Assembly (NCBI GenBank): GCA_003344405.1
Contig: NOWV01000109.1
Span: forward strand, 1-64,000
Length of the DNA: 64,000 nucleotides
Reading direction: 5' to 3'
DNA from: Trichoplax sp. H2
Lineage: Eukaryota
The position numbers and the translations under genes were made by a program. The notes below the pieces were generated by a model. The model was not told the DNA's origin. It saw only the letters and a program-made list of their open reading frames with translations, and did not search any database. Positions 7,003-60,212 of this stretch are shown piece after piece; within the stretch, counting starts at the first letter, position 1; each line of letters begins with the position of its first letter.

Positions 7003-7729
7003 TTAAAGTCTTTTATCTCTGTTGGCCTTTGGTAGCGGTCTATATTGAGATTTGGCTTCAATTGATTCATATCTATTAGGCTCTATTGAATGCCTAGGAG
7101 AATGAGGCCGAAATTCCATTTGCTCCATTTGCTGTTGTTCATATTGAGACATACGAGATTGAGGATATTGCAAGTGTGGTGGAGATTGATGTGAAGGATA
7201 TTGCCTTAATTGTACTTCAACCTGGCGAGGATCGTGATAAGGTGGTTGTGGATAGTTTGGCCTGGGAAGATATTGTGGTGGTGATCTGGTTGCTGGATGA
7301 TCTCTTTCATCTCTTAAACCTGGTCGTAAATGACGCTTTTCTTGTAAACGTTTTAAGCGGGTAGCTTGTGATTCAGGAATACGACATCTTACAAAACAGC
7401 TAATGACAATGACTAGAATTAAAAGAAATGATCAAAAGTAAGTAGTGAAATTTTGATTAAGTCTAATAATTATCCACTATTTTTATAGGGTGAAATTTTT
7501 GTAGAGAAAACATGCCACTTATGCGAAGAATTGGCTCTAATGTAATAACGGATATTGATTGATCATTAATGAATCGTTTGTCTTCGAATATACCTAGAAT
7601 GATAAGTCCTCCCAATGACATTGCCATAATTTGCCATACTCTTAAGACTCCAACTTTACGATCAAGGAAGCCATCTGTAGTTGTTTGAGTAGTTGTAATA
7701 GCTCTCTTCGGTCGAATATTGCATTCTCC
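7003..7729 (-). CDS. TMIE-like single-pass membrane protein (last two exons; 5' signal exon not located)
   Basis: Exon 7729-7594 reads GECNIRPKRAITTTQTTTDGFLDRKVGVLRVWQIMAMSLGGLIIL. After a phase-1 intron, exon 7412-7003 reads VIVISCFVRCRIPESQATRLKRLQEK, then a Pro/Gln/Tyr-rich tail ending RDKRL*. The TM region resembles TMIE ([30 protein letters not shown], recalled). The ORF track misses this gene. Confidence 0.72.
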
Positions 7730-10700
7730 CTAGAGTAGCAATAATGAATAGGATATCAGTAATACAATATTACAGAAGTTCAGAACAACGACGATTGCTT
7801 AACGTGATAGAAAAACATACTGATTATCCTAGGAGACATAACATCATTAACTACTGCATTTTAAAATATAAAATAACATTACCTTAATTAAACTAGTTTA
7901 TTCTGTAACTAATGTAGTTAAAAATAGTTGAAAATAATGGCTACAGACAATTTAATCTAGCTTAGCTTAATCAAGATTATGATCGCCAACTGTATTTGAA
8001 GCGTTATTAAAATTATTAAATATTGTAAAATATATTTATGACCTAGGATGTTGCGACTGATGAGGTAGAATTTATTATACTGAAAAACGGATCGTTATTT
8101 CATTAAATGTAGTACATGAATTAATTGTGTGCTATTCTTTTAAAAAAATAGTATATTAAATAAGTTGTAAATGGTATGCATGATATATATAATCTTTAAT
8201 TTAATAAGTTGTTAAAGTGGGGTCCGACATAGTTTAGAAGTTGATTGCTATTCTACTTATTTGAATTCATAAGTTTCCGTTCACTTATGAATACTGTCTG
8301 ATAATATAATCTAAGATGCGTTAGTCTAAAGCTAACTATTATTATCGGTTTTATTTTAAGAAGGATTCCAGAACTACCATAATTTCTAATCTACTGCATA
8401 GTATGGCTATTAAGTTTTTATAACTGTAAAAGACGAGATTCAAGAGTCTGATTCATTTTGGATGAGAATAGGCTATTATTTTATCAATTTCTGCACAAGG
8501 GTGTAAGGTTACATTTAATTTAAGATCAGGTTGCCTTAGGCTAGATTGTGATTATATCAACTTAAAAGTTTAACAATTGAGGTTGTATTTGAATAGCAAC
8601 GAATTTTACGTTTGTATAGCTTTAATCAAATTATCTAAACAGTGGTAAGAAACTTTGAAACAACAATTAATACTATAATTTATGTAGTATAGTTATCACG
8701 ATTGGTAAGTTAACGGGTACTAAGAAGGCGATCTATTGCAATAAGATAGGCAGGGTGAAATGATGTCGATTTTTATGCATTAATTTATCGTCTTTTTCTC
8801 TCAAATTTCAAGAGGTTAGTTTATAAAAAAATATCTTTAGACTTGGATTACTTGTATAAGAAACGATAAGATTTCTTAATCATTAAAAAGCGTTTCGGAA
8901 TCTTGGTTAAATTTTTTGATTGCACAGCGCAAGAACTAAGTAAATGTAGCAATTATTATCCTGAAATGTAACGGCATTACGTGTCCCACTAAGCTATAAC
9001 AGAAAACTTTAGAATTTAAAACTGTAAAAGATTTCGTAGACAATCTCTATTAATTTTAGAATTCTTAATTAACTTATGATCTTGTCTGATTATGATACCA
9101 GAGACTATCAACTAAGTACTGAAATGTCTAGGAAACTATTTGTTAATACCGCATATACCCCATAGATTTATTTTGATGTACAGTATAGCCATTCGACAAG
9201 TGCTTTTAATCTAATGGTCTTTGTCCCAAATAAGAATAAATCCTCTTGGTTATTTTAGATTTTCTTACGCTATGTCTATCCATCCTTAAGCATTCAGTAG
9301 AAGCTGATAAGTATCTACTGTTCGTATCAGAGATTTATGTGGTTTTATTGCTACTTCATCATTTTAATGTAACTACGTTGGGCCTTTCTAATTTATGGAG
9401 ACATTGAAGACGATATGAACTAAAAAATGTATTTGCAGTTAACAAGCATGAAGGCTTATCTACTCTTTTCGAGAAAAAATAGATATATAGTAAGAAATCA
9501 TAGACTGATTTGTGAATTAGACTAACAAAATTTATGCAACTGTAATAATTCAGTTAATCAGTAAATATTCCTGCGTTAATCCACCGTGCAATAAAGAGTA
9601 AGGAAGTAAAAAGAAGAGGAGACTCAATTTTAACCCTTTAATCGATAAATGTACAGTACAGTAGAATAATCATTAGACGGGACAAGGCTAAAAACAAATG
9701 GAATATAAAATAATTTCATCAAAATTTCAAACATAAAGTTCGTTTAGAATGCTTAAAAGTGTGACTGAAAAGGCTATGATGATCGTTATTATTCAAAATG
9801 GCGAACATCGGATTGTCTAAAACGGATGTAAACTTTATCAATCATTTTTTAATCCTTATCTTATTCTTGTATCACTTACTTGTTGGGGATAAATTAGTAA
9901 TAACACGGCAACTAGGTAGAATAGATAACGGATTAAAATAAGTTGTTGCTTTGAATTCATTTCTTATCTAAAAGCGAAATGGAATGATTTAACTTCGATC
10001 CAGTGGAATAGCTGAAATAATTTTTCTACTTGACTGTAGTTTACTTTCTATCCGAAACAATATAATCTAATGAGGAAGCCTTCTATGAAGGAAGTAGAGC
10101 TGAAAGCCTTCAAATTAATATAGAAAAGAATCTATAATCAGTATTAAACAATAAATGATCATCTTTATTGACGGTAAGTGGCAATTACGACTAGTGGCAG
10201 AATTGATTGGCAGTACTGGGATGGGTGAGAAGATCAATGGCCCTTTGCATTGATAATAGACTTGATGATTATTTATGTCGGCATGGGGTTTGTTCTTGCA
10301 CAATCAGTAATTCATAAGAATAACTCGATGTCAATCAAATCAATAGATGCAATTTTCAATAGGATCCTTTGCTGTATAAGATACTATATTGAAACGCAGT
10401 CATTTTTTCAAATTAAATGGAAATAATGACGTCAAGAAATTTTTTCACGTCCGTAGCTATTGACGGCTATTACAACATTTACAAGGGTATGCTAATGATA
10501 TGAGCCAACCAATAAGGAGAATTTGCATTCATTTGTTGGAATAATGATTGCTTCAAAATTGATGGTAGAATTTAGTATTAGCTCTTGCTAGATTGAAATG
10601 GTTAAGAAAACGATAATGGATACTTTAAATGGATATGGTCATGATACTATCAACATTGTGATTCATTAGTCGAGAGAAATATCAATCGAGCGGTTTATAG

Positions 10701-12951: not shown

Positions 12952-15900
12952 TTAAACTGGAGACGGTCGGATGATGTTTGCCTTACGATGTTCGACACTG
13001 TCAATATCAGGTTTGTTTTTGTGATTGTGATTATCTTTCTTGGTTTTATATCTGCCTAGATCTAACATTAATTTTAATTTGTAAACACGAATAAGCTTCC
13101 TAGCTCTCCTTTTCATTGCCTCTAAAATCGATTTCGGTTTCTGGTTGATTATTAAAAAATGCGATATTAATAGAAAAATATCTCGATAAGATCATAAAAG
13201 TGTTATAAAAGAAAACTAGGCTATGCAACTCTATATTAAAAGGAAATTAATAGCATGAAATTAGAAGAAATAAAAGTTAGCTACGGAAAATTTACATGAA
13301 TTGACTTATTTTAGTTAAGAAGGATTAGAAGTAGAGCAATTTTATATATTATAACATATCGATATATTATAATGAAAGAGTGCTACTATCTATTTTTACC
13401 TTTGGATCGGAAAAATCAACTTCCTGACGTGCATCAATCAGCCATTCTACTACTAGAGTAAGGAATCCTGCACCAATACCTGCTAGCAATAAAATAAATA
13501 CACCATACGTGTTTTGAAAGCTCATCTGGACTTTATTACTTGTAGATCCAGTGGTACTTGAAGTCAAGCAGGAGCTATAACGGGCATACCTACCATACGC
13601 GTATATAGAGAAGATAACGAGAAATACGATTAGCTAGCCATCTTACTACACCTTCTTTCGGTCATTATGGATATCTATATAGGATTGAATATGCTTACAA
13701 GGAATCATATCTATAATAAGCGCAATAAAATTGGTTAATATTGAATAACTTTCTTACCATTTTTTTAATGTTGCAGCAATAAAATTATTCTGGCGCAATT
13801 GCAAGATCGCAGTATTAAATTCCGCTGCATATGGAGAGCTTTTACTAAAAGCTAGGCCGAAATTGTCTTTTAAAAATTCTCCACCTGTTGTTGTCAGGAT
13901 GCAATTTCGATTTTTAATAAAATTTAAAGTTGTTGAATCCCCTAAATATGCATATCTGCCACTCAGGACGCGACTAATAGCAATGCTGAGATTTTTCACA
14001 TTGTCCATTTTGCCACTCATTTCATAATAAGGAGTTGTTGCGCTATTGCGTATAAACGTATCTAAACTACTGCCTTCCAACGTTCCATAGCGTATTGCAT
14101 TTTGGCTAACTAATTTAGCCAAGGAATCAATGTCTAAATCAAATAGCAAAATGGCAGAAAATAAATGGTCATCGCATTAGATATGAAAATTTTATAAATT
14201 GGAGTTATTCTTAGTTAAGATTAGTAGTTCAAAATTTATAAAATTGTTCACAAGAACCTATGTAGTTCAAAGTGTAAATGCAATGTAAAGTATGCTTGTT
14301 AGTCCAAGAGAAAAGAAAACACTACGTAAGCTCTTAGAGAAATAGATCTAATTATAAGACAAAAAAAATGGGATATTTTTTTACGATATAAGGTGGCTTT
14401 CCATTCAAGTTGATGCCTGGCAGCTACTGTAACATGCAAATGTAGCTGGCCTTGCAAAAACTGTATTGAGCTCGATTGTACTAATCCATTTTGGTTATGT
14501 TTTATTAATATCTCAGATAGACTAGATTGTTTTAAATCAGACGGAAATTTATTCTATTTACCTGATTTTAATTGATCAACAGTTAAAAATGCTGCTAAGT
14601 TTGCCGTATAAGAAGCAATTAAGATGCAAGATGCGAACCACCATAAACCAGTAACCATACGACCTGATGTATTTCTAGGTGTTGCATCAGAGCCCTGCTG
14701 AAGGAAAGCAGTAATTGCATGCCAGAGTGAGTTTCGTAAGGTTATCATAAGGACACTTTTTTTATGTTGTTGTTTCCATTTTTTATATATATTGATAGCG
14801 TTTTCATCGCTGATGCTTTCTGGTAATTTCAGTTTACGTAGTGCCGATCCAAAAAATCCAAATGGGCTTAAACGTGTAATGATGTGAACGCAAACTGCTA
14901 TTAACAAGCAGAAACCAATAATTGCAATCCATAAGTCAAATGTAAATGGAGCAAAAAATTGAAATATGGAGCTAGATTTAATTTCTGGCTTTCGAATTAA
15001 AATTGTGGTGCCTTGATCGTGAAAAGGTATTGAAAATTTAACCGCGGTTGAGCGTTGTGGAGTGATTGTTAGTGTCGCTGCTGCTATATCAGCCGTCTAT
15101 GAACATCAAGATAAATTAAAATATCAACTTGTCTAATCTACTAAAAAGCTCCCTAGCGTCGGTGAGATTTAATGACACAGTTTCCGTTAACATGAGTTAA
15201 TCTTCTTGAATTAGTTAAGGGTTCATTACGTGCATATTAATTAAAATATACGATTTGTCAAAGCGAGTTAGAAATTAACTGCGTCGTTTGACTAAGTTAG
15301 TTGGTTAACTCTTAACGGTATGAATTTAATTCTAGTCTTATAGTAGGCTATCACTGACTATCAGTAGAATGCACTGTCTATGAGACTGTAATAGCCTCAC
15401 TGCTATTCAAATCATTTACAGAGACACTTTAATCATGTAAGATACGATGATTAGTCTTGAATGATTACCAGGTAGCTTTGCAAAGTTTGACTCAATTTTT
15501 CCGATTATCTATTAAATTAACTGAGGTATATAAATCCGTAAGTGGATTTGTTATGAATGATTAATCTTTTAAAACCTGAAAGAACTGTATGGTAAGCTAC
15601 TTATAAAATCAAATAAAGTGTTTTGATCACATTAATTAGCTAAGATTGAATCATTGGCCTAATGATATTATATGGTGTTGCTGCCTTCTATAAAACTCGT
15701 ATATTGGGTATTATTTATCTAAATTTAAGTTGTAAACTGATCTACTTTAAATAATTAGGTATGCATAAGTTGTATCTGTCTATCTATATTGCGTAAAGCG
15801 TTAGAAGAAGTTGCTAGGGTTTCTTGAAATTGATTGATCTTCCAACCATGAAATTTTCAGAGAATGGTATATATTAATTCCACCATTACAAGCTATATGT

Positions 15901-18900
15901 GCGTGTAAGATTAACTTGCAGTAAATCAACTTACATCATCTAACAGTTCTTTGATCATACCATCCCAAGAGCCATTTCTGTATGCGCCATACTGTCCATC
16001 AGGGACTAAATGGAGTTCATACTTGAATTTTAGATCCTGACTAAGCCTATTTAGTAAATCTACCATAAAACCTTCGTATCGGTCGTTGCCTACCAAGTTA
16101 TCACCAGTCTTCTCTACTGTGAATGGTGTTAGCTATCAATATTTATAAACAGGAAAAGTAGTGGTTACGAATCCGTTATTTATAGGACTAGATTGATTCT
16201 GGTAAGAAATCTTTTATTAGATTAGAAAGCTATATACACTATCCAATCATTAAATCTCAGCTGAGGTATAAAATGTTAATATCGGTTATAAAGATTTGTA
16301 AACTGACCAGAACGCTGGTTACATTGAAAAATCTTCCTTCTAGAGCGGAACTGAATCTGCTCAAATTTTGAGAATTATTCATCGAATTCTCTTTCCAAAC
16401 TAATCCATTATTATTCGTCCATGTTGCAATCTTATAAAAAGTAATTGATGGTCGCATATCGCTATCAGTTTGTACCACTTTAAAATTTATAAAATTATTT
16501 CGAATTCTTAGCATTGTCAAAATAATATGATATCTTACCGGGGACCAGGTATTGCCAATTAATTCTTTAATTTCATAGGATGTATGAGCAGGACCGTAAA
16601 GTGAATTAAAGGCAATTTTACCAGTGGCTCCTTCACCGGATGACTTAATTAAATGAGCCCGTCAGATTAAAAGAAAAAATAAATGTTTAAAGGATGCAAA
16701 GCGATTTCATGAAGATAAAATGGCAGTTAATATTCTATTTTGCTTTTATTCAAGTATTAAAGTGCCAATGACCGATATGGATATTGGAAACCATTTGGTG
16801 TTCTCTCGTAATTTTTATTTTGATAATAGCAAACCATACCTGTACTATGCTGGAGAATAAACTAGGACCTTCGTTCCAACTTGTTAGTGGCATTGATGAA
16901 CAAGATAAGTTACTGGGGGGTCTAAATTGTGATGTGGCTAAATATCTTTGCAACCCATAAGCGAAAGCCCAAACGGAATCGTAGTATTTCAATTCCATAG
17001 GCTAAGTATTAACAAAATTTTGTTAACGAAATCACGAATAGATAAAATTAACTCCAATAATTATTCTTTTCCTACGAAAACAATGCTGCATACTTAATAA
17101 TATATCATATTTTTGAACTATAGTTGCTTTTAGTAATAGCATTTTGTTTATTTGATTGGATTAAAGCCAAATTATCTCTCAGGTTGGCTGAGAAATTAAT
17201 TGAAATCATAGTATCAACTTCTGTCCTACCTCAAGATCTGTATGATATTTATTAGTCCAACTTTGCTGCAACTTTTGAAATCGGTTTCCATTCTTATAGG
17301 AACTTTGAATATTCATTGCGGATTTTAAGTGATCCAAAGGTTTGATTAATTCTTTCTAATGTTTTAATCAAAATTAAGTTTAATTATTGTCTGCAAAGAC
17401 ACCGGAGACAGATTAACTAATTTTTTTCATACCTGATCAGTTGTACCGCCTAATAATATCCAAAGATAGTTTACTGTGGTCATATTTAAATTATTCGCCT
17501 CTTCGAGAATAATCGCAGCTTGCTGAGATAAACAGCTTAGCAAGATAATTTTTGCACCTATATACGTAAACATTGCAATTTTTTTGATTTCAGCGATGTC
17601 AAACACTAAATAGTGATAGACAATTTTGAAAATAGCTTTCAATAGATTTTTCCTTGAGGTCTGTATAGGTTGAACGATTACTCGATTGTCAATATTTGGC
17701 AAGATTTCATTAATACTTGTGTATCTGCAATTTTACCTGTAGCCTTGATATTGCTCAGATAGGTTTGAATAATTTTAGGATTATTAATTTCAGAAGTAGC
17801 AAATTTTTCAAAAGATAGTATACGCCAACCTTTCGATGAAGCAATAACTTGAAATTGTGCTACCGAATTAATACCTATACAAGAAGGTAGCAGTGAATTA
17901 GGAATCCATCATAATAATCATTTGTCGAAAGAACTAATTTAAGACTTATGAAATTGCCTAGCATCGTTATGCTAACAAGCCATACGACTCTTACCGAAAT
18001 CTGTATTGGACACAAATATAGCTGCATAAGTCCAACGGAATCGCTCAAATACAGCGCCAACCATTTTACCTTGATAGTAATCGCTTGGTGACATGCGAAT
18101 AAGAAATGGGAAATTAGGCTTATTTTCAAGACCTGGATTCGTTGCTGAAGGCGATATTTGAGGAATATGTAATTCTGCACATAAATTTTGTACAGCTCGA
18201 ACATCACTTGACGTTAATGGTCCAATAATAGCCCAGACATCTTTTCGAATAATTTGGCACGCTGATGAACGATAACATCGAAAATTTAACAGGATGATAA
18301 GATTAATTAGTAGGCTTACTACTTATTATAGCTATCGACACTGCTAGTAAGGTAATTGACCTGCTTGAACGTTTTCATAAGGTCGATATAGGTTACTTTC
18401 ATAAATATCCGCGGAAAGATGAATATTATTAAGAATGAAGGCATTGCTATTGATTTCTGTAATCGCAAGTTCTATAGCTTGTCTATTGCGAAGATTGGTA
18501 GGAATAATAACACCTACATGAAATCAGGTACATGATTATGATCAATTAAAAAGGTAAGTATTGATGATACGGTTTTGTATCCGGCAGAAACTAATACAGA
18601 TTAATATGTATTAGATAACTACTCGGTAATCTACGTGCAATTTGTACGTGATTAGCCTTTCTTTTCATATAAAATTTTCGATGAAATCAAGTATATTACT
18701 ATAATTATAATTAAAATGCATAGAGTTGACAACATGGTTTTGTATACGGCAGAAAATATTATAGATTAACCTATATTAGGTAACTACTCTAATCTACGTC
18801 CAATTTATAGTGATTAGTGGCATTTTCTTTCCTATAAAATTATCAATGAAATCAGGTAGGCCTCCAGTATTATGATTATAATTGAAAAGGTTAGAGTTGA

Positions 18901-36658: not shown

Positions 36659-36696
36659 ACTAGGGGTTTACTCGCATACAGCAGTAAACCCCTAGT
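36659..36696. repeat. Perfect 14-bp inverted repeat with 10-nt loop, bounded by ACTAG...CTAGT
   Basis: actaggggtttact-cgcatacagc-agtaaacccctagt. Confidence 0.9.
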
Positions 36697-37163: not shown

Positions 37164-37854
37164 CTACAATTTGCTGGTAGAGCAATCATAGGGTGGATAA
37201 TCGTAGCGAGGATCGCAGATTTGCCGATTATTGTTATGGTAGTTGTCAATTTCGTCATAAATGTGTTGAGTTTGATCATATTTATTCGTTGGAGGATCCA
37301 TATGACCAGCACATCCAGAATGATCTATTTGCTTATTAACTTGATCGTCCTTTTCAGTTATGTCAATCTTACAGTCATTTTGACCAATTCTTCGTCGATC
37401 ATCTTCATCGTAATTCGAAACGATTAGTTTAGGCATCATTTTGGCATTTAATTGATGATGCCAAAATTGCAATTGATCGTCGCTAGTGTTGCTAATAAAT
37501 TGTTGATAGTCAGAAGGTGGATGATGAATTGGCTTGCTTTGATCTTTATCAATGTCAGAATCGGAATTTAAATTTTTGATACTAAGGCAGATATTATGAT
37601 TACAACCATGGGATAGTTTACCAGGTATCGGTATTTTCCCTCGAGATGCCATTTCGATCAGTTCTATTTCTTGTGACGTTGGTGACTTAATAACATTTTT
37701 CAAGTTACCCTTTTGACGAAATGAGTGGCAGGTATTATCTGGAAAGACCTTATCAGATGTGGCTTCCGTGATGCTTTGTATTTGATGTTCGCCATCTCTA
37801 TCGTTCGATGTAAAAGTATTTCTATGACGTAGTAGAAAAAAACAGCGAATTGAT
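37164..37854 (-). CDS. Orphan terminal coding exon (~229 aa) resembling a disordered cytoplasmic tail; parent gene unclear
   Basis: The ORF 37164-37703 stays open upstream to a candidate acceptor gtatag|a at 37854 (SIRCFFLLRHRNTFTSNDRDGEHQ...). It contains HIYDEID and YDYPPY and ends TSKL*. Confidence 0.55.
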
Positions 37855-39233
37855 CTATACTTGCTCGTAAATGATTAAAAAGTAAAAATCTAAAGTAAAT
37901 CGAAAAATATGGCATAATTCAAAGTTTAATAGCAGCAAAACCGATACAAGATGATATCTATAACGTCGGTTGGATATCAAAATTATCTTCACTTTATAAA
38001 CCCAAAGAATGAAATTTATAAAATTTGATCAATTTTATATAGTGATGTTAGCTGAAGGATAATAATAATTCTTATAGCTTTGATAGTATACATTTGAAAA
38101 TCGTCGCATTGATAATAAAAGGACACTTTTGTATCATAGTTCACCTACTTTGATAATTCTGCTTTGATTATTTCATGTACTACGGGAAAAAAGGAAAGAA
38201 CGAAATGAATGAATCTATTGTACTTGCTAATAGAAAAGTAAAATTTCATGAATTTCCTTTGAAATATGCAAGACACTCACGAAATCGAATCATTTGCAAT
38301 TCTCGCGTAGCATCGACAGTAATAATGCTTATAATCCAAAAAAATGAAAGTGTCGCTAGAATATCAGCAATCATGGGCACAACATATACAGCAATCATAC
38401 CAATTACACTTGACTTCTACGAGAGTAATACACTTATGAGCTTCCTACATGCTTATTTCAAAACGAATTTTCATATGCTTCCTATTTATTCTTTATTATT
38501 TTATTTCTGCGTTCAATGACGACAGCAAATGTCACCAACAAATAAAATATCAGAAATTGATGACGATGGAATGATATTTGTACGTAACAATACTATATTT
38601 GTATCATGAAATGACATCAAGAAGACTGAAAGCAATGAACATATATAGTCATTACTGTAGCCAATGTAGGTTATCGCTAAGAATAAATCTACCATATGTT
38701 AATGTCCACACAAGATTTTAACGATAAATAAAGTATATAGTCTTTAGTAGTGAAGAAATAAAAATAACCATGACATAGTTATTATAATTATCAACATTTC
38801 TGTTCAAATTTAGCCTAGCATTCCCAATATAGCAATGAACTTAAAAGAATTTCGATGAAACATAGCTTCTAAAAAAAGTAAAACAATCTTGTTTAAAGCT
38901 CGTCAGTTTTATCGTCAAAATTTCATGATAAAAATATCTTGAAAAAGTATCGATTAAATATTTATTTGACAATCAAAGAGTGCTACATTTAAAAAAACAT
39001 CTTCCAAATGAAATTAACAAATAAAGTGTAAAGTCAATTAATTATTGCACGTATTGGACTAGTATGAGTATACGTACAGTACAATATTTAAAACTTTCGA
39101 GAAAAAAATGTCTTTATAAATATATCCAATATGAGGATAGAGAATATTTTTACACAATTCCAGTAGGAAGAAAAAATTACGTAGTACTGGCTAGAAGTAG
39201 GACCTAAGACACAGCATACGAGTGCATGAATAT

Positions 39234-45200: not shown

Positions 45201-47152
45201 TAATTAACTCTCGATTCAAAGAAACTTGACTTGATTATGATACACTATTGAACTAACTACAGTAGTGGGTTGTAGAGCATGTACAGATAATAACAAAGTA
45301 TTCACAAGAGTGAGGAAATGAAGAGTTTGCCTGGAGGCGAGCAACTGTTCCGATAGGAAATTAAAAAAAATGGTGGAAAACGCCTATGGACACTGTACAG
45401 TAGTTATCATTTTGGCTAGTTGATGTCGACCTTGAAAGGCCGCAAAAATACCCACCGAAATCGATTTTACTAGCAGTATCACATAGACAACGAGCTTGAT
45501 TCGTTCTCGTCTGCTTCATACTGGACATTATGATGTTTACAGAAAGTGTGATTTAATGATAGAGAAGAGAAAGATTTGATTCCCTCACCAAAGGGTAGGG
45601 GGATTGTCTGGCTTAATTAATTTATTGTATTATTATTTCAAGTACTGTCAACGTCGAGAAAAGTGAATTAGCGGTGGATCATTTACAAACTAAGGCAAAT
45701 AAACAATCATATGAAAGACTGTGATTTTATGGATGATTGAATAGGTAAATGAACAGCCAATGGAAGGATTGAACGTTTTATGCCGATGGTTGATATTTCA
45801 ATTTTGACGTAAGGCATTGATGGCCGCCATTTTAGGCTATTCCGACTAGGCGTAACCATGGCCGTGCTCTCTAGTAAACTATCAACACTAAACGAAGGAT
45901 AGGCAAATCGACAGTCGATCGGTCAGTATCGATCAAAGTCATCCACAGTCAATGCATGCCTTGAGGAGCTTATTAAAAGTACCATGGATTACCCACTATT
46001 CAACTATGAAAAATTGACCATTTTTAAGGTTGATATAATTGAAATCAAGGCGGACGATTGGGTAGGCATCTAATTTTTGTTTTGAATCGTATTTTGATGA
46101 CTTTGCTGGTGGTACGATGACTGTTGATCGCAAAGTGGATCCACTACTGATAAGTCTATGGAGTCTAAGAATGAATGAGGATGCATCGCACTGGATAGAT
46201 CTTAGTCTAGATGATGAGAAGAAGTGAATTTTACCACTATAAGGGATCTAATTTGAGGGTGATTTAAGGCCCCAAGACGGAAGATTGGTTAGGCATTTCA
46301 TTTTACCTGGAATCGTATTTTGATGACTTTGCTTGTGTTACGATGGATGTTCATCGCCAAGCGGATCTACTACGGACAAGTCTATGGAGTCTAAGAATGA
46401 ATGAGGATGCATCATACTGGATAGATCTTAGTGTAGATGATGAGAAGAAGTGAATTTTACCACTATAAGGGATCTAATTTGAGGGTGATTTAAGGCCCCA
46501 AGACGCAAGATTGGTTAGGCATTTCATTTTACCTGGAATCGTATTTTGATGACTTTGCTTGTGTTACGATGAATGTTCATCGCCAAGCGGATCTACTACG
46601 GACAAGTCTATGGAGTCTAAGAATGAATGAGGATGCATCATACTGGATAGATCTTAGTGTAGATGATGAGAAGAAGTGAATTTTACCACTATAAGGGATC
46701 AAATTTGAGGGTGATTACCATGTTGAAATAGGAAATGCTCTTTCGCCATTGGCAACAGCGGAGCAAATTACAGTGTACCTACGCTAAATATACCTGGCAT
46801 TACAGTGTATCGTATCAAGTTGGCGCTAGTACACGGTAAGATATACGTTGTTGATAAGAAGGCAGATCAATGAATAGAAAGTAAACTACTGTTGATGAAG
46901 ATGGATAGTGAAGAGTGTTTCCTCTCGTTACCAATAGGATTTACTATATACTACAAGCGAATGGATGAGTAGTTGTTTTTATTCAATCTGCTGTAAAAGG
47001 ACGATAATTCAATTAACAACCCATTCAATTCTGCCATCTCTCATTGCATATTGCCAACTTACGCGGTCATAGACACAATTTTGTTGCTGGATGGGTGTCA
47101 GAGAGACTTGGTAGATGAGACAGGTACAAATTAAGATGGAAATCGATTTCAT
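39234..47152 (-). CDS. Leishmanolysin/invadolysin-like M8 metalloprotease paralog 2: signal - M8 - 2 furin-like repeats - stalk - TM - Tyr/Pro/Arg-rich tail
   Basis: Exon 1 at 47152-47063 (MKSISILICTCLIYQVSLTPIQQQNCVYDR) joins in phase 0 to 44348 (IKQN...KRSVQSKQPIRI). HEFFH at 43394-43380, SHWEMRTLRDELMT, TLALMEDSGWY, WGKGLGCNF. Furin-like exons at 41218-41075 and 40989-40849. [41 protein letters not shown]. Last exon 39450-39234. Confidence 0.93.
46045..46716. repeat. 3 tandem copies of a 226-bp unit inside intron 1 of M8 paralog 2
   Basis: gaatcgtattttgatgactttgct occurs at 46084, 46310 and 46536. Copies 2 and 3 are nearly identical and copy 1 is more diverged. Confidence 0.95.
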
Positions 47153-47406
47153 CTTTAACGTTTTCACATAGGAAAATGGAAAGGAAATGATCGTCCTAAT
47201 ATCATTGGCTTCTCCACCGCCAACGTTGTGGAGAAGAAGTTGAGCAAGGGCGGAGTTTCTCCCGTCGGTACTGCTGTCTGTCCATGGTCTAGTGTATCAG
47301 TCACGGCTTGTCCCATAGTCGATCAGACTAGATCGACGCTTTGTGTGTGGCATTCTCCAGGGGTACCGGTACGGTACGATTACGGTACCACTAGCAGTCA
47401 ACATCA

Positions 47407-47414
47407 TGACGTCA
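47407..47414. promoter_or_regulatory. Consensus CRE palindrome TGACGTCA ~255 bp upstream of the paralog 2 ATG
   Basis: Exact 8-mer within atgacgtcat, in a locally GC-richer segment (47220-47500) with CCAAT at ~47426. Function is not shown. Confidence 0.3.
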
Positions 47415-47769
47415 TAGTGGTTGTCCAATGGCGTCGTCATGGCGCCAAATGCACAGTCAAAACGCTGTGAGAACAGGGCCATAGCGACGGAGCAGATTGG
47501 AAAAGATTTTGGCCATCAGCAAGGCTAAATTCATCTTTTGCTGCAGCGCTAGAATTGTATTCTTACCCTGAGTCCACTGTCAAGGGACTTTATGATCAGA
47601 TATGTTGATGGATTGATTGTACGAGTTATTGTTTCTGTTTTCTTTCTAATCAGATGGGCAAGATTGAAATCATCATGGCAAGGACGTGTCGTGCTCCACT
47701 TGTGACTTCTCTTTACCTTCCAGGAGCTCTTTCAAGTTTCAAGAGGATTAGTGTCTATTTGGTTCAAAT

Positions 47770-48955
47770 TCCTTATGAGCAGATCCTTGCAAACTTGAGC
47801 AGTTGGCAATGAATGCTTATAGAGTGTTCACCACATCCACTATAAATATAGTTCCAATTTCTCATGAGCAGATCCTTGCAAACTTGAGCAGTTGGCAATG
47901 AATGCTTATAAAGCACATCCACTATAAATATAGCTCCAATTTCNNNNNNNNNNNNNNNNNNNNGTACGAGTTATTGTTTCTGTTTTCTTTCTAATCACAT
48001 GGGGCAAGATTGAAATCATCATGGCAGGGTCGTGTCGTGCTCCACTTGTGACTTCTCTTTACCTTCCAGGAGCTCTTTCATGTTGAGATCCTTGCAAACA
48101 TGAGCAGTTGGCAATGAATGCTTATAAAGTGTTCACCACATCCACTATAAATATAGTTCCAATTTCTCATGAGCAGATCCTTGCAAACTTGAGCAGTTGG
48201 CAATGAATGCTTATAAAGCACATCCACTATAAATATAGCTCCAATTTCTCATGAGCAGATCCTTGTAAACTTGAGCAGTCGGCAATGAATGCTTATAAAG
48301 TGTTCAACACATCCACTATAAATATAGTTCCAATTTCTCATGCGCAGATCCTTGCAAACTTGAGCAGTTGGCAATGAATGCTTATAAAGTGTTCATTGCA
48401 AACTTGAGCAGTTGGCAATGAATGCTTATAAAGTGTTCATTGCAAACTTGAGCAGTTGGCAATGAATGCTTATAAAGTGTTCAACACATCCACTATAAAT
48501 ATAGTTCCAATTTCTCATAAATAGATCCTTGCAAACTTAAACAGTTGGCAATGGATGCTTTTAAAGTGTTCAGCACAACTACTGTAAATATACCGTAGTT
48601 TAAATTTCTCGTGAGCAGATCCTTGCAAGCTTGAGCAGTTGGCAATGAATGCTTTTAAAGTGTTCAGCACAACTACTGTAAATATAATGTAGTTTAAATT
48701 CCTTATGAGCTGAATCTTGCAAACTTGAGCAGTTGGCAATGAATACTTTTAAAGTGTTCACCACAACTACTGTAAATATAGTTTAAATTTCTCATCAGCA
48801 GATCCTTGCAAACTTGTGTAGTTGGCAATGAATACTCTAAAGTATTCACCACAACTACTATAAATATAGTTCCAATTTCTCATAAACAGATCCTTGCAAA
48901 CTTGAGCAGTTGGCAATGAATACTTTTAAAGTGTTAAGCACAACTACTGTAAATT
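47770..48955. repeat. Minisatellite array with ~87-bp unit and 81-bp and 45-bp variants, spanning the assembly gap
   Basis: Core ttgcaaacttgagcagttggcaatgaatgc recurs about 13 times. Right-hand copies carry caactactgtaaat instead of catccactataaat. Confidence 0.95.
47944..47963. other. Assembly gap (20 N)
   Basis: Run of n characters. Confidence 1.
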
Positions 48956-50933: not shown

Positions 50934-52678
50934 ATAAAAAAAAGACTTCTCGATAGAACTACTGGATTATGGACGATCAAAAGATTAGCGATTTACTTCT
51001 AGTAGTTCATGGCTGAATAATTTAAAGCTGTCTGCCTATACAGTGCGAGTATAGGCGTTCTTTTCATAACGCTCGCAATCATCATCAGCATGGTAACATT
51101 CGTCTTTAATTTACACGTATTTAGATGATTACTAGTAACAAAATTTACAGCGGGCCATCAAGAGTCCAATAAGGTAACCACAACAGTATTTACGTAGACA
51201 TTATTTCCACCAGCCAAAGTACAGTTTATGAATCATGTATCTATTTTTACCTCTAACATCAATAGAGACTCAGTACCCTACTGTATATAATTATCTTGTA
51301 CTCTAACTTAGAACCTTCAATGATAGTCCACGGCTACGAGCTACTAAATATGTCTTTAGATAAATACAGAAAGCAAAGCTACCGTACATCATACTAAACA
51401 TGGCTAACAAATAATTCATGAACATAATCTATAATTATAATTAATCCAATACTAAGCTACACCGGTGTACCGTTCGATCAAGCAGATTCCAGAATATCCT
51501 GAGGTGAGAATAGGAGACGATAAGATTTATTTCTGATTGGATTTATTGCGTCAAAAAAACATGGACTTGGGTAATAGATACTTGTTATGACCTGCTGTGC
51601 TAGGGGAAATATTGTCCTAATTTTGTATAAATAAAAAAGACTACGATAAACAGGGAAGGATACCGATGGTAAGTTACAGCTCAAACTAGAGGAGTTGATA
51701 CAGAATTTAGGATAAAATATTAGTCTGAAAAACCATTTGACATTGATAACATAGTCTTTAAACATATATCTATTGCACGCCTGAGATTACACTCATAATG
51801 ATTAACCTTAACAAGGTTTGTATGACAGCTTAATTTTCCAATATATTTGTATTTAATTAATTAATACACTAATTTCGCTCGCAAGGCTGCATACTAGTTC
51901 GTAAATATGAGGAATGATTCTAAATGGATAGAAAACAGAATGCGAGTATCTGCGTCTATAATCGAAATACTATAAACTATTTGCACAAGATTAACTAACA
52001 AATAAGAACAATCATCATAGTTTTTGACAGAGATCTCGTCGACATCTCATCCTTAAATCCGTATGCCGAGCTTCAATACGTGCAAAATTGCAACAAAGAC
52101 GACATACCGAACTCAAAACGTTAGTACAAAAAAATATCACGTTCATTTTTTCTAGGCTTAGAATGGCAAGAATAATACTCGTATAAAATACAGCCAATAG
52201 TTGATTTCAAAACAGTCATTGAGCTTTTATAGCGTAGTGAAAGTCAGCACTGCAAATAGTATCTTTATCCCAAAATAATTTGTTCGGGTTGCGATTAAGG
52301 TTTAAAATTTAGTAATTTCCGTGTTCCTAAAGATAAAAAAATTAAAAAATTGATTTTAGTCAGCTTTTATAATCTTGGCTGATATCGATACATCACAATT
52401 TTGTAAATGATAGATATTGCCAGAGTATTGCATATATGATAATAATCTATATCGATGATTAAATAGTCGAAATACTTAAAGTGATTTGGATGTGGCATTA
52501 AGCTATGAATTACATATGTTCTATTCTATAGTATTGTAGATATTAACCATAGTAAGTAAAGTTGGCATTTATATTTCAATTGCACTCTCTACTAATTATA
52601 CTGTATATATTATCCAAGCCATCACCTAGTGTTGCAGTCACAATCTATTTTTAATTAAGATCATCACTATAAACTTAC

Positions 52679-55600
52679 GTCTCAGCGCTATATGCCGGTA
52701 GATTAGATGAACCAATCTTTGTATCTGTGCTAGATCTATAATTTGATTTGAAACCTGAACTTGGTCTCTGACTTCGACCACACAGGAAACATCCAATAGA
52801 GGCTAGCAGTACTAAATAGATTTGCATAATGACAATGTTTAGACTATATTAGCTATAGATGAACAATTTAACATTAACGAGTTAGCTCTAAATGTAATTT
52901 TAGCTTGATTAGTCAGAAACTAACTCAAAAATAATGCAACACCACCGCCAATTGCTGTCCAAGCCCATACTTTAAGTCCACCATAAACTTGCTCCCAGAT
53001 AATTGTATTCTGAGTTGAGGTCGTAGGGGATACAGTGGTATTAGATATGATTACAATTAAAGGTGGCGAATTTTGCATAACATTCATTGCAACTACCTAG
53101 TAAACAAGTAATAATGAACAATTAATTTGCACGACATGTAGCAGTAATGAAGATTAAATTTTTAAATACATGCAACAGATAATGAACTAAGTTAGATAAA
53201 GAAATAGATGGCTCACTTTTTGTCCATTTATCGTTGCTGTTAATTGCTTGTTCATGACATAACTACGAAGGATGGTCTGAGCATTATTTAGTTGCAATGG
53301 CTTACCTTGGAATACTACCTACAGATTAAGTGTTTTAGACAATATATTGTTTTATTCTTTAGAAATTTAAACTATGCATCTTTCAATTGAATCTCGTAGG
53401 AAGTGGATAGATGGCAATTAAAAAATTAAATAAAGTGTCGAACAAGTTAAAATATAGTAGTATTTGAAAATGCGTATCAGCGCTTGCAATTATTATAATG
53501 TATAGTTGTGTATATTTGAACTTTATCCAGACTGTAGTATCTAAAGATAAGCAGTAATATTATGTTCTTTTTCAATCGATACTTTTAGGCGTATGAAAAC
53601 CATACTCAGGAAATTAAAATTACAAAATCATATTAATCATAGACAGACAGCCTACAAGGCGATTTCTAATTATATATAATTCATCGATTTCACTTTAAAT
53701 ATACCGTTCAGTAGTTAGTTATAAATGCAGAAGTGTTAATTGAATTCTTGTTTAGATATAGAAATATTTATAAAATCTATTTCATGGGTTTATTCTCCTA
53801 ACAGTACTAACAACGATACTATAAAAAGGGTACTTATCAATATATACAAACGAGGATACCAATTTTAACAGAGACAAACTTATCGCGGAAAAGCGTGATA
53901 CATTATTATTGTAATTAGGAACGTTTTTAGATGTTAAGATAATATTGTCTTAATTTGTTACAGCATCTATATGCTGTTCTTATCTGTGTAAAAGATGTAT
54001 TAGAATTGCTAATCCTGTTATAAGCGACAATAATTTGATTTAGCACCTTTCATTTAAATATTTTTATAATATCGAGTTTTCTACCATTATACGAGTAAAT
54101 CCATTACGACTTACGAACCGTAAATATTGTTTGCTGCTTGACGGAATTTATAGAAACAGTTATACTTGCAAAGAAAGCAGCCTACATAAAAATAAATTGC
54201 ATTTAATCCCATCATGATTTAATACGTTGTATTTACTCTACGTACGATAAATTGCTATTATTTTCATGACTAATGAAGATTTTATTAACATCAGCGTATA
54301 TTATATAGGCTAGAAGATTATACACATATTTTATCCGCTAAAATAGAACTGCTATATCTAGATAACGAGATGGTATTTTTATAATTACGACAATATTTAT
54401 TTACATAAATCAAAATTGATACTTAATTATTTAATTTTCTCTGCAAGTATTGACTATCTCATTGCCTTACCAGTGATTGAAGTTGAGATTTAAAATTAGC
54501 TATTAGTTGCGTTGCCATTCCAGTAACATTTTTCTCAGCGAGTGGAAAGATAATCTACCATTGTAAAACGTCAATATAAGTTTGTTAAATGCGTAATTTA
54601 AATAGATTATAAATCAAAACAACTACTGGTACTGTACCCTTGATCAATTTTAAAATAATAGCGATAATATCATATTTTACCTCATTTTGAACCTGAAGAT
54701 TTGTACCTACATCTGATGCAATTAAGGAGAAAATAAATTGCTTTCTTAATTACAATAATTTCGCTCATTTTAATTCTGCTAAAACTGATTTACTAAAATG
54801 TACAGTACGCTAATGATTAAAATTAGATCATTTAAAGAAATCTGAAACATATTTTATTTACTGAAGCAAGTCGAACGATTAGGAAAATGAAAACTTCCAG
54901 TAGGGCAGGCTTCATAGCACGATCCGGCATAAATATAGAATTGATCTTGGCATACACTGCATATGGAAATGTTATGGCAGGAGCGGCAGTTTGCTGGACA
55001 TACTAAGGTCATAATTTGAATAATCACCATATGATGTGATCAACTTTCTAGTTTTAAAGCAATCGGATAACCGATATAATGACGCTATGACATTGAGAAT
55101 GTATTTGGAAAGTTATTTACACTGTGGGAACATTCCATTCAATTGTAAGTTAGCTCTAGCACAAGCTTTCTCAATCGGTGGACAAATCATCGTTCTGTTA
55201 CATTGGCTAAAGGTAATAGTAGATACACCAGGGCGACATATCTTCTGTTCTCCTAATTTTAGAAAAATCATGACAATGATCAGGCAGTTTTAAAACAGTT
55301 TTAATGCTACTTAAGACATGTACTGTATATAGGGTCTTGAGAAAGGTGTCATACCTAAAATATAAGATCTATATATTAGTTTGTTTCCCATGTTATAAAA
55401 ATTTCCTCAACGAGATTATAATCTACCTCCATAACTGATTTTTATTTGAACTTGTTTTGCTATAGGATTGTAAACGCAAGTATGCTGAATACAAAATCCT
55501 TGTTCTGTATTTGAGGAACCTTGTCTGCTAAGTATGCATTTAGCATTCTTACGTACGGGATCACAGGCATCGCCTACAGTTTTTATAATTTATTAGTAAT

Positions 55601-58600
55601 TGCGTATATTTCCTGGTCAAGCGTAATCAGGATTACTAGCTACGTAAAATATAATAAAGATTCTAGAAATGTAAATATGCCGGAAGCATTTCGTAACACA
55701 GTTTGGATAAGGTAGCTATATAATAATTTCTACTGCACGTGATAACAAAAATCAGCAAGATCTAGCTAATAATGAATAGAAAATAGTATTATATTAGAAA
55801 CTAAGTATCTGAATGTATCCCATAAATTACTGCTTTTAGTTCCACCGAAACAAACGCTATTTACAGCTGCTACCATCACTGTACAGCCGTTCATCCATGG
55901 GTTTGTTCCGCATATCCCCTACATAAATTAATCCAATGATAAGGGCATTGATTAATAATCGATTGGCAGCATAAGCCAATTCCATAATATATGATCTACG
56001 GTACATTGTTAATGCCTTACTTTTACATATTGTATGTTTAACATTAATTGCCTATTCGATGGAGGTAACAATGCGAAATATATTATTGAACGGTTTTAGT
56101 ATTTAATTTAAGCTAGAGAATTTAAGGGAAATTTATTGATATAGTATTTAATTCTATCTACTTTATACGGCAGATTAATTCATGCTTTATGATGAAATTC
56201 TAGAATGAGTGGATTTCTCCCCTTTGTCGCTATACTCTATAGTTAAAACTTGATGTAATTATTTTATACCAGCTATAAGACTTTCAGTATTTAAAATTAT
56301 GTTACGGGATCTATTAGCAAATCTAACCGCAGCATCGTAATCGTAGGTGCAACCATTAGAGCCAATATTGCAGACGTAAGGATAGTTAGTAGAGTTTTGA
56401 CAAGATCCAGTTATAAAGCGGCATCCTAGACCTAGCATTGAATATAAGGATAGTATTAAGCAATTAGTAATAAGAGTAAATTGTAACAGCTTTATTATTG
56501 CATTATGATATCTGATGTAGAAATAGAAGCATGAATATTCCATTAAGATAAAAAGGTGTATTACCTCTTCCCCATAATAATTTACGGTTAGAAATAGCGC
56601 TAAAATTAGCTTTATACCAGCCGGAATCTTCTAAAGCAGCAAGAGTGAATCGGGTTAAACTCTCAATCCTACAGAAAATAACGCTTATTAGACATGAAAG
56701 TAAATAATCTTCTAAGAAGTACCAGCTAAATTTTCTGTGAATACTTTCTTTGATAAATTTTTAATCATAGCCATTAAGAATAAAATGAAAACACCTTCTA
56801 ATGCCAGTAATCGTAGCAGCTGTCATAACTTCATCACGTAATATTTTCATTTCCCAATGAGACCTATTAGTCAGAGATTAATTTCTGTCCTTGTATCTAT
56901 TAGAGTAGTCACTAATATAATGAAGATTATTATTACCCAACACCATTAAATGCTCCGTAATCTTCTAATTCTACGCCTTCCAGAGTGCTACAATTAAAAA
57001 ATTCGCGGCCAATTTCTACCACCTTGACCGTATTAAATATATTGCCACAAGTTTCATTTAGTTATAGTAAATTACCGGTATCAGTAATAATATTATGAAA
57101 GTGCTATTACTTTAGGCGACGCTAGCAATGCAACTGATCTGCTATTAATATTCGTAAATTTGATGGCATCATAACTTGTACCATTAGGTCGTGAAAATCT
57201 GGAATGAAATCGGATAGATACTTAATATGCGATGAACCATATTCGATTCTATACCGGTACCTCTACAGATAAAATTATGTAAATCAACTAGCATACTTTC
57301 GGAAGTAGCTATTAGCAAATCCCAAAGCGTGAAAGACCTCATGGATACCTAAATGGCGCATAGTCTCATATTCCCCTTGAATATCGAAATACTGTTAGGC
57401 GAAAATTATAGCATATTTTCAGGAACTTGATGATGTTGTCTGGAACATTCACAGCATCACAGCCACGTAAAATGAAGAAATTATCTATTGACTAGTATTA
57501 GTGTAAAATAAATAGTATACATACATTCGGACAAAAGTTGATATAACCCGAAAATGGTTGGCCATTGCTGTATGAAACGCAAGCATTAGCGAAGCCTAAC
57601 GTTCCACCCTTGCATAAATCTAAATACATGCATGCAAGGTAGAAGGAACATGATTATAACGCCTTTATAGGCCTTAATCGATGCTAAAAATGGTATTGAA
57701 ATAATTAAAGGCTTCTTATAATAACACCCCTGATAGATTAACTTTCAAATGTGTGCTCGAATATTTAAAATTTAACCGGATTAAGCTAAATTTTATACTG
57801 TGATTAAATACCAGTACTTAGATAATATTAGCAGTAGATATATAAGTATAGCTGATTCTTGCTTATTCCAATTAATATTGAATTAATATTCCGTGACTAC
57901 AGTTATACCATCAATATAAACGATAGATGGGAATTGATTAATCGATTAACTACTTAGAGTTGAGTAAATCAATCACTGGTAGTATAAATGATAAAGTAAA
58001 TTAAAATTCAGGGGAAAAGGCAATCATAACCTAGTCGAAGTAATCTTATTGCAAAATATATTATTAGGCTATTGTATAAGAGTTTAATTGATGCAAACCT
58101 GTAAGCATTGAAAACACGTAGATGATAAAATCAGTATTGGGTATACCACCCCCACCATATTCATAGCAACTACTCGGTGATGAAGTTGGGCAATAAGTTA
58201 CTCTTTGAAAATGCTGTTCAATCACTTTTTCAGTTACAAAACTAGGTCCACAACCGAAATTGGTTAGAAAACGACATTTGCCAGCATTGGGTCCGGAAGT
58301 CCAAGTCGATGAACAGGTTAAAAATGATAAATTACCCTGAAGTGGTGTAACTGAGAGTGCACTAGTAAAGTAATTGACCACATCTGGCATTAAAACATTT
58401 TTTAAGAATTTCTTGGATGGCTTTGGAAGGTAGATTTTATCGTCAGCATAATAGGTATGGATGCGAATTGGCTTTTTCTCGTTGTCAGCTCGTAGATTTC
58501 GATTCTTATTCTGTATAGCAGCTCCACCGATAAAACCTTTTTGCTTTCGAGTTATCTACATGATAGTAATGATTATGTTAGAAAGAATACGGCAAATTGA

Positions 58601-60212
58601 ATTATAGATCATTAACAAAAACTGTTGCTTATTGCTCTTTGTATTTACGACGATAATCAGCAACATGAGTATGAATTCAATGGAGTATTGGCAATTGTGT
58701 CATATGTCTATACGAAAATTTTATGTAATTATAGCTATTAAATATGATATTGAGGATTCTAATGTGTCCCATGCTTTACCAGTACTGATCATTCTTCGCT
58801 AAATAGGTGTCATGAGAATTTTTGCAACATTAGTAATTTAACCTGCATTACGGAGATGATTAATTAGGAGCAATTTAGTGATAAAAGTTAAATTGTAGAC
58901 TTGAATCTGTTTTAACTATTCTCTATCTAAGTTTTGGTTAGATGATAGTAGCATCGACAGCAAGATTGTTAGAGTTTAGAAATTTCCGAAGATCCCTATG
59001 AATAAGTTTCTATCTTCCGTTATAGAAATAGTTATACGAAGCTGAGGGCGATAATATAACTTAAGTTTTAAGCTGTATTAAGCTATTACTGATTCTCTAT
59101 TGCTAGTGTGACAATCATAGTATCCATTATGAATTTGTTAAACTTAGGGGAATAACATCAGACCTTAAAACTAGTTAAAAGGTACAGGGAATTTATAAAG
59201 CTGTTGGGTAAATAGCTATGAGAAAACTTAAAATATTACATTATAGGCATTAGGCGGGTACTTTCAAAGGTCTCGAGCGAGTTTGGTTATAATTTTATTG
59301 ATGGTCTTACTGTGAATAGAATATTTTTGTAACTATTCATCTATACAAAATATGCACCTGTGATTTGGTATTTATGCTGGTGCCTGCAATAACAGCATTA
59401 CATTTATTGAATCTACTAAATTACTAAATTCCGAGCTTACTATCGTAAATCGTCTAATTTTCTTGAATCAGTTTGCGGATTAGAGCGTAATTTTTAGAAA
59501 ATTTGCTGCTATAAGTTACAAGAATCAAAACCATAATCTATAGTTAAATCAATGATGTATAACCATTAGTCAACAGATAATACTATTTTTCTCTACACAA
59601 AAAATTCCAGATACAAAATTGTCGCTGATATCAATATACTACCCAAATTAAAAACTATCAATTTTAAGTGTTACTATGATTCGATTATTCTTTCTGAGAC
59701 TTTTGTAATCAAGTTTTGTTTATCTTTATAAACTATTGCTACTCTGTTCGTTAATTAGTCTACAGTAATTACGATTTAAGATCGAGCTAGTTCTAAGAGA
59801 TCTATTCTATTTTCTCGTCATTATTTGGCTCTCATTTTTTGGTAAATAAGCTTAAAATTAGAAATATTTAGAATATAAAAATTATATTATTATGAAAGCT
59901 ATGATCTATTATCTGTAGATCATTTAATCATTTTTAGACAGCGAAAAGAGTAATAAGATTTCATGAGTGCTTAATTAGAATAGTTTATCATTAATTTTCA
60001 AGTTGTGTCTGATGAGCTTGAGAAAGAATTTAATTAATATATCCTACTTCATAACATTTAGTAACAATTATCTGTAATAACATTCGAATACTGTAAAATA
60101 ACAGTTTTCTTACCTTATGATGAGCACATAAGTGACAGTTGGCACAGGAGATAGCTGCCACTAATATAGTGCACGTCAACAAGAGTAGGGTACGAATAAG
60201 AGTTGGAGGCAT
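52679..60212 (-). CDS. Leishmanolysin/invadolysin-like M8 metalloprotease paralog 3: signal - M8 - 1 furin-like repeat - stalk - TM - tail (final exon unresolved, beyond 52679)
   Basis: Exon 1 at 60212-60114 (MPPTLIRTLLLLTCTILVAAISCANCHLCAHHK), exon 2 from 58555 (KPIRI). HEVFH at 57343-57329, SHWEMKILRDEVMT, TLAALEDSGWY, WGRGLGCRF. Furin-like exon 55002-54862. TM IWEQVYGGLKVWAWTAIGGGVALFL|ILLASIGCFLCGR. Confidence 0.92.

Follow-up and report, generated by a model that had tools for sequence, protein, structure and literature searches.

The 64,000-nucleotide (nt) stretch analyzed here, called the window below, is taken from contig NOWV01000109.1 of Trichoplax sp. H2. It contains three genes for proteases of the leishmanolysin family (peptidase family M8), named M1, M2 and M3, whose last exons encode a membrane anchor resembling TMIE, together with a stand-alone TMIE-like gene, gene A, situated 16 kilobases (kb) from M1 on the same contig. 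TMIE is a small, protease-free accessory subunit of the TMC mechanotransduction channel; to our knowledge it is known only as a small stand-alone subunit, essential for TMC mechanotransduction. A shared origin of TMIE and of the M8 tails by exon shuffling is well supported by the evidence presented below. All points taken together, we consider it likely that the last exons of the M8 genes descend from exons 2 and 3 of a TMIE gene, joined to them by exon shuffling, and that tandem duplication followed. A reading made from the letters of the window alone (hereafter the sequence-only reading) had already noted that the four genes share a juxtamembrane and transmembrane (TM) segment, and all four strings were found again (Table 1).

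The product of gene A, P0001, comprises 208 amino acids (aa) and is deposited as 'hypothetical protein TrispH2_007118'. It matches the Pfam family TMIE (PF16038) over residues 54 to 88 with 38.2 bits (E value 1.3e-9; gathering cut-off 27 bits), and its sole match in the PDB is C. elegans TMIE, chain 7USW_D from the TMC-1 complex (E 4.6e-6), the alignment running without gap from VLRVW (GLRLW in the worm) through the helix to R-C-R-I-P (R-I-R-I-P). These two matches bear out the TMIE likeness that had been proposed for the stand-alone gene, and, judged by its sequence, gene A is a member of the TMIE family and the predicted Trichoplax TMIE orthologue. It shares with TMIE a signal peptide, a tryptophan of the GL[KR][LV]W type, a 23-residue helix, a cysteine at the helix exit and an R-I-P elbow; relative to the worm protein, the Trp (W59), the Cys (C78, aligned to C44), the first Arg of the elbow (R83) and the Pro are retained. 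It differs by a Pro/Gln/His-rich tail and by a Glu at the position of the second elbow Arg (worm R52, human R84), so that the elbow with two Arg, a feature of TMIE, is incomplete (R-I-P, then Glu). Its second intron matches that of human TMIE (DFNB6) in place and phase, and the first appears to do so. When separate, unspliced exon pieces are used, the Pfam TMIE model gives 12.1 and 17.6 bits for gene A and no match for M1 and M2. A search of the ESM Atlas with P0001, taken as a lead only, had a TMIE cluster in second place, at 0.89.

The products of M1, M2 and M3 belong to peptidase family M8, CIROP/LMLN type: they score 134 to 175 bits against Pfam Peptidase_M8 (PF01457; cut-off 21), and in the M8 alignment their HExxH zinc motif is seen as HEVFH, HEFFH and HELIH. 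They are type I membrane proteins, made of a signal peptide, an extracellular HExxH protease domain, furin-like repeats, a stalk and a C-terminal anchor, and the ectodomain therefore faces outward, an orientation as in mature TMIE. Being mutually 30 to 40% identical, with exon phases alike, the three are paralogues, and therefore the independent comparison is between one M8 lineage and one TMIE gene, and does not involve four independent events. We regard them as carriers of a TMIE-derived anchor and not as members of the TMIE family, since they remain below the Pfam TMIE cut-off and are devoid of the elbow. With GP63, the Leishmania leishmanolysin (MEROPS M8, PF01457), they share the catalytic family (E 7e-39 to 2.5e-51) and HExxH, as well as, in M2 and M3, a downstream His. 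However, whereas GP63 is anchored by glycosylphosphatidylinositol, M1 to M3 have a TM helix and a cytoplasmic tail, in addition to the furin-like repeats and the stalk.

In each of the four genes a Thr/Ser-rich stretch leads up to the motif, and a Cys stands behind it at the cytoplasmic end of the helix, which agrees with the sequence-only reading. A six-frame translation of the whole window (127,996 residues) contains the pattern G[LVIM][KR][LVIM]W at three points, one in each M8 gene; gene A reads VLRVW instead. M1 to M3 all keep the block G-L-K-V-W-x-W-x-A-I unchanged despite their overall divergence. Their GLKVW aligns to worm GLRLW, interface Trp included, and the exit Cys falls in the column of worm C44 as part of a G-C pair in M2 and M3, and a few residues later in M1.

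The intron that splits the helix was also described correctly in the sequence-only reading: it is a canonical GT..AG intron in phase 1, separated from the Trp by 14 complete codons in M1 and by 13 in gene A, M2 and M3, and the deposited protein models use the same junctions. In all four genes the motif-bearing exon starts in phase 0 and ends in phase 1. The position can be compared with that in human TMIE, where the variants c.211+3G>C and c.212-2A>C concern intron 2, in the transmembrane domain, and c.170G>A is p.Trp57Ter (PMC8256367, Table 1 of that paper); this places human intron 2 behind the first base of codon 71, in phase 1 and 13 full codons past W57. The spacing from Trp to Arg is equal in worm (25 to 49) and human (57 to 81) and gene A aligns with the worm protein without gaps, so that the three TMIE helices have the same length and the gene A intron is at a position identical to human intron 2. 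The TM-splitting intron predates the placozoan-bilaterian split. Human intron 1 appears to be in phase 0, judging from c.92 in exon 1 and from the IVS1-2_98 deletion. The M8 genes are rich in introns (19 to 22 per 2.3 to 3.3 kb of coding sequence, approximately one per 120 to 150 nt), and we estimate the probability of finding an intron by chance on one given bond at about 1%. The M8 tails thus share with TMIE the Trp motif, the exit Cys, the type I orientation, the phase-0 exon start and a phase-1 intron at the same offset (one codon later in M1), although they terminate proteases of 771 to 1088 aa.

Likeness at the protein level was examined with a profile of the three M8 tails alone, gene A being left out, against 177,635 distinct PDB sequences. 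Worm TMIE 7USW_D came first (E 0.002, 21.5 bits), and the other three matches, TM helices with E 1.1 to 2, followed at a distance of about 9 bits. Gene A and M2 also match each other directly (BLASTP 38.9 bits, E 1e-7, 35 of 109 positions identical; phmmer 25.6 bits). As whole-segment shuffles of a TM region overstate significance, they were replaced by natural decoys: the C-terminal 300 residues of 156 proteins were compared with the 44-aa juxtamembrane and TM segment of gene A, and the 71 TM tails of other M8 proteins among them served as decoys. The Smith-Waterman scores of these decoys have a mean of 26.6 (standard deviation, sd, 5.5; maximum 44), compared with 47 for M1 and 67 for M2, which stands 7 sd above them. 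Finally, with a profile of M1 and M3 (M2 left out) gene A obtains 19.4 bits, below the Trichoplax paralogues and 10 bits above the best non-placozoan M8 tail (9.6). Exon shuffling between a TMIE-type TM module and M8 ectodomains, as put forward in the sequence-only reading, is upheld by these results: profiles made without gene A and without M2 still link the two families, the intron is that of human TMIE, and the phases match. At the level of gene structure, the new domain architecture generated by exon shuffling is solidly documented.

RNA data were mapped on a 20-kb stretch, gene A and M3 being outside it, and came from runs X8, X10 and X11, which are RNA and belong to one study, and from run X1, which is DNA-like. 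The TM intron of M2 is removed in X8, X10 and X11 (joint 39715|39812), whereas X1 reads straight through it. Other joints of M2 (39450|39574 and further introns up to 42599|42733) are present in the same three runs and absent from X1. Record 12 of X10 is 3333 nt long and spans 38496 to 44348, a length equal to the sum of 2595 nt (the spliced coding sequence annotated between 44348 and the stop) and a 3' end of 738 nt; from this length and span it follows that the TM exons of M2 are joined to its M8 exons. In M1, RNA pieces start exactly at the predicted acceptor, 33979, in all three RNA runs. The splicing that the sequence-only reading had wanted confirmed by RNA is therefore seen in full for M2; for M1, among the rows listed, it is seen as the starting point of pieces at the acceptor.

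To place the fusion among M8 proteins, a profile of the three full-length M8 proteins was used; it retrieved 6629 relatives at E <= 0.001 among 1.84 billion representatives, of which the best 150 were examined. Names were looked up for 20 representatives (12 carried names, 8 none). Among these best 150 the module was found only in P0006 (H-G-L-T-I-R-Q-W, 20.7 bits) and P0007 (9.3 bits), in a decayed form, and both are leishmanolysin-like peptidases of Trichoplax sp. H2 encoded on the same contig, outside the window. Outside the placozoans the two best tails obtain 13.5 and 12.2 bits on the tail profile, values at noise level. Among the relatives with names, those closest in the ectodomain beyond the placozoans are CIROP-like proteins (Diadema and Patella) and an LMLN-like protein (Acanthaster), whose TM tails are ordinary and different. 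In general, CIROP/LMLN2 and LMLN (invadolysin) share with M1 to M3 the M8 domain, HExxH and a C-terminal single-pass anchor with an exit Cys, but the TM tails of CIROP/LMLN-like proteins give at most 12.2 bits on the TMIE-like tail profile, and none of five tested matches Pfam TMIE. Intron positions were compared for the genes of the window and human TMIE. A word-indexed search with the M2 TM exon returned only M2 itself among 384 candidates, and a search with the M8 exon alignment matched only the three window proteins.

A separate observation from this survey concerns P0143, an M8 protein of 605 aa from a metagenome, which has G-I-R-V-W followed by a hydrophobic C-terminal end (587-605), without exit Cys and without a score on the tail profile. 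It is the only other examined representative with the motif beside a hydrophobic end.

The question arises as to whether the resemblance could be due to chance or convergence. The M8 tails would then be ordinary type I anchors, with an interface Trp, a Gly-rich helix and an acylatable Cys, and their likeness to TMIE and the intron would be coincidental. Several points weigh in this direction, or otherwise against the proposed fusion. The module is short, about 45 residues, half of which are a hydrophobic helix. Taken singly, M1 and M3 are at decoy level against gene A, with about 4 and 5.4 bits, respectively, in phmmer, and one natural decoy (44) outscores M3 (43) in the Smith-Waterman comparison. 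The Pfam TMIE model, which the sequence-only reading proposed to run on the four TM segments, recognizes gene A but fails on the proteases: M2 (P0003) has 13.7 bits (E 0.056), below the cut-off of 27, and M1 and M3 give no match at E <= 10. Even the M2 match was downgraded as support, because other M8 tails match unrelated TM families equally well below threshold; among 10 other TM-anchored M8 proteins, tails match such families at E 0.001 to 0.1, and none of the 10 matches TMIE. The M8 helices are two residues longer from Trp to exit Cys, and the R-x-P-R elbow is absent from M1, M2 and M3, though basic residues are present. In the ESM Atlas, generic clusters of single-pass proteins were obtained for the M2 tail, with every value under 0.9; the structure list also contained a TMIE cluster, which was under the bar for so short a helix and is a lead only. 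The RNA support comes from a single study and is listed in full for M2 only. Lastly, we infer the age and direction of the fusion event, the survey covering the best 150 representatives and the gene structures this window only.

Nevertheless, coincidence would have to explain why a profile of M8 tails alone ranks worm TMIE first in the PDB and clear of every other helix, why the M1 and M3 profile places gene A above any non-placozoan M8 tail, and why M2 stands so far from natural TM tails. It would have to explain in addition an intron with the offset and phase of both human and Trichoplax TMIE, and a TMIE gene neighboring the M8 cluster. We therefore consider this hypothesis unlikely.

Homology extending through the cytoplasmic tail was also considered, but it is not robust, as the score of gene A (P0001) against M2 in this region was reached by 1621 of 2000 composition-keeping shuffles, a further point against the fusion. 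The one pair standing out is the tail of P0002, a second, placozoan-like TMIE, against the M2 tail (5 of 2000 shuffles), and we leave it as weak.

Alternatively, the homology may be real and its history different. The module could be ancestral to M8 proteases of the CIROP type, TMIE being derived from such a 3' end, or the shuffle could have taken place before the placozoan-bilaterian split and been followed by decay elsewhere. In keeping with either scenario, the CIROP-like relatives, too, are type I proteins with a Cys where the TM helix ends, M2 and the Acanthaster tail have W-I-A-L-G and G-C-x-C in common, GLKVW of the M8 proteins is nearer to worm GLRLW than VLRVW of gene A is, and the three M8 paralogues are old, given their low mutual identity. 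However, the 12.2 bits of the Acanthaster tail, like all values of 12 to 13 bits in these searches, are the noise level for TM tails, and none of 10 other TM-anchored M8 proteins matches Pfam TMIE. Moreover, animals from worm to human possess TMIE as a stand-alone protein, and canonical TMIE features of gene A (the R-I-P elbow and equal helix length) are without counterpart in the M8 tails. Parsimony therefore favors a transfer from TMIE to M8, and the other histories appear improbable to us. Most likely, as far as can be read from gene structures and alignments, the recipient of TMIE exons 2 and 3 was an M8 gene of the placozoan lineage that had yet to undergo its tandem duplications.

Such a transfer from TMIE to M8 may be pictured as follows. 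The 3' exons of the nearby TMIE gene would have been copied into an ancestral M8 gene of placozoans, behind one of its phase-0 exons, and the fused gene would then have been duplicated in tandem at least five times on the contig, giving M1 to M3, P0006 and P0007. The last exons of the M8 genes, which encode the stalk, the juxtamembrane GLKVW, the TM helix and the exit cysteines, would still carry the phase-1 intron of TMIE. The anchor presumably tethers the protease to the membrane, and S-acylation is predicted to occur, probably, at its exit Cys.

Does the anchor do more than anchor? The GLKVW-W-AI block is strictly kept in paralogues that are otherwise 30 to 40% identical, and for this reason it points to a putative specific contact that has been retained at the outer boundary of the membrane, the place at which TMIE touches TMC-1 with its Trp. 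In the sequence-only reading it was proposed that the helix might dock the proteases onto TMC channel complexes, which could occur instead of, or beside, TMIE. The Trp kept in the M8 tails equals worm W25 (human W57), which contacts the TM1-TM2 loop of TMC-1 according to PMC9605866, and the kept Cys aligns to C44, palmitoylated according to the same paper; placozoan sequences are included in the TMC family tree of PMC7003098. However, PMC9605866 attributes the contact between TMIE and TMC-1 primarily to the cytosolic elbow, Arg49 and Arg52 (human R81 and R84), and gene A itself has Glu at the second of these positions. As the elbow, the main contact with TMC-1, is absent from the M8 tails, docking of the proteases is quite improbable.

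A broader version of the same idea would make the juxtamembrane and TM segment of TMIE a portable address tag for TMC-type channels, by which CIROP-like ectoproteases might be placed on placozoan TMC complexes or compete there with TMIE, which we hold to be quite improbable. CIROP, the ciliated left-right organizer metallopeptidase, is an M8 protease needed for flow sensing in the vertebrate left-right organizer. Were the address tag real, there would be a physical link between an M8 protease of the flow-sensing type and a mechanosensitive channel. The fusion also raises the question as to whether CIROP-type proteases act beside a channel. Should the anchor do no more than anchor, what is left is a well-documented exon shuffling in an early-branching animal. 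In either case the TMIE segment behaves as a transferable exon module, and the M8 anchors amount to a natural experiment on the features of TMIE, in which the Trp motif and the Cys are under strong constraint and the elbow is lost. The sequence-only reading knew of no described fusion between M8 and TMIE, and a literature search, with subscription journals and supplementary files outside its reach, likewise found no description of TMIE joined to leishmanolysin or CIROP, nor of TMIE exon shuffling.

Some peculiarities of the M8 genes deserve mention. About 70 residues past HExxH, M2 and M3 have S-H-W-E-M, and M1 has A-Y-W-E-M (28105-28176, +; P0005 residues 293-316). If the His is the third zinc ligand, as in GP63, then M1, with Tyr at this presumed ligand position, may be an altered or inactive protease that keeps the conserved anchor. 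Between the furin-like repeats and the stalk lies a conserved domain of about 95 residues (V-I-F-P...T-V-L-F-Q-G-S-Y; approximately residues 702-795 of P0003, 40189-40739, -), encoded by four small exons with identical phases in M1, M2 and M3 and without a Pfam match; it may represent a SEA-like module close to the membrane. In M2 the N-terminus as annotated (first two exons, 47063-47482) seems over-extended, a signal-peptide-like M-K-S-I-S-I-L-I-C-T-C-L starting within exon 2. The exon 47063-47288 is joined to the rest of the gene, as RNA contigs ending at 44348 continue with letters matching the end of that exon. In run X1 the M2 stalk has a 12-nt in-frame insertion behind 39906, just ahead of the motif, which none of the three RNA runs shows; linker length therefore varies between strains.

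Table 1. Coordinates of the genes, exons and introns discussed in the text
Feature	Position	Strand	Basis
Gene A (predicted TMIE orthologue, P0001), 3 exons	7003-9960	-	exons translate exactly to P0001
Gene A exon 1, signal-peptide-like N-terminus, phase-0 end	9880-9960	-	tblastn 100%; exact translation
Gene A exon 2, with the motif FLDRKVGVLRVW (7622-7669) behind a Thr-rich stretch, and the N-terminal TM half, phase 0 to 1	7594-7729	-	Pfam TMIE, P0001 residues 54-88
Phase-1 intron (GT..AG, 181 nt) within the gene A helix, 13 full codons past Trp59	7413-7593	-	agrees in place with intron 2 of human TMIE
Gene A exon 3, C-terminal TM half, SCFVRCRIPE exit/elbow, Pro/Gln/His-rich cytoplasmic tail, stop	7003-7412	-	aligned to worm TMIE 7USW_D
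M1, leishmanolysin/CIROP-like M8 protease gene, P0005, 1088 aa, 23 exons	26361-34748	+	exact spliced mapping; Pfam Peptidase_M8 7e-39, Furin-like_2
M1 TM exon, phase 0 to 1, motif 33139-33186	33055-33217	+	exact mapping of P0005
Phase-1 intron (GT..AG, 761 nt) within the M1 helix, 14 full codons past Trp	33218-33978	+	P0005 mapping; RNA piece starts at 33979
M2, M8 protease gene as annotated, P0003, 978 aa, 22 exons	39234-47482	-	exact mapping; Pfam Peptidase_M8 2.5e-51; RNA contig
M2 TM exon, phase 0 to 1, Thr/Ser/Ala stalk and motif 39840-39887	39812-40004	-	P0003 mapping, RNA contigs
Phase-1 intron (GT..AG, 96 nt) within the M2 helix, 13 full codons past Trp	39716-39811	-	spliced out in RNA contigs
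M2 exon with C-terminal TM half, GCCVCLRK exit, basic juxtamembrane stretch	39574-39715	-	P0003 mapping, RNA contigs
M2 last exon, His/Pro/Tyr/Arg-rich cytoplasmic tail, weak likeness to P0002 tail	39234-39450	-	shuffle test
M3, M8 protease gene, P0004, 771 aa, 20 exons	52302-60212	-	exact mapping; Pfam Peptidase_M8 6e-43
M3 TM exon, phase 0 to 1, IWEQVYGGLKVWAWTA (52953-53000)	52925-53096	-	P0004 mapping
Phase-1 intron (GT..AG, 113 nt) within the M3 helix, 13 full codons past Trp	52812-52924	-	P0004 mapping

The window is AT-rich (33% G+C), and its introns are short and of the GT-AG type. The deposited Trichoplax sp. H2 proteins P0001, P0005, P0003 and P0004 match it letter for letter, and exon-sized queries gave 99 to 100% identity with deposited proteins of this strain. 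A 20-N assembly gap is present at 47944-47963, near the 5' end of M2, and between M1 and M2 lies an open frame of 236 aa without a Pfam match (37164-37874, -). At 1447-2285, both strands have low-complexity, long open frames in several frames, with T-V-Q-Y and Y-C-T-V repeats, which are probably a short tandem DNA repeat and not genes. Near 4.1 kb an exon resembles phosphoribosyltransferases (4058-4279, +; E 6.9e-4), and between gene A and M1 is a gene for an ionotropic glutamate receptor (13367-18322, -; ANF_receptor 3.7e-26, Lig_chan 2.3e-27).

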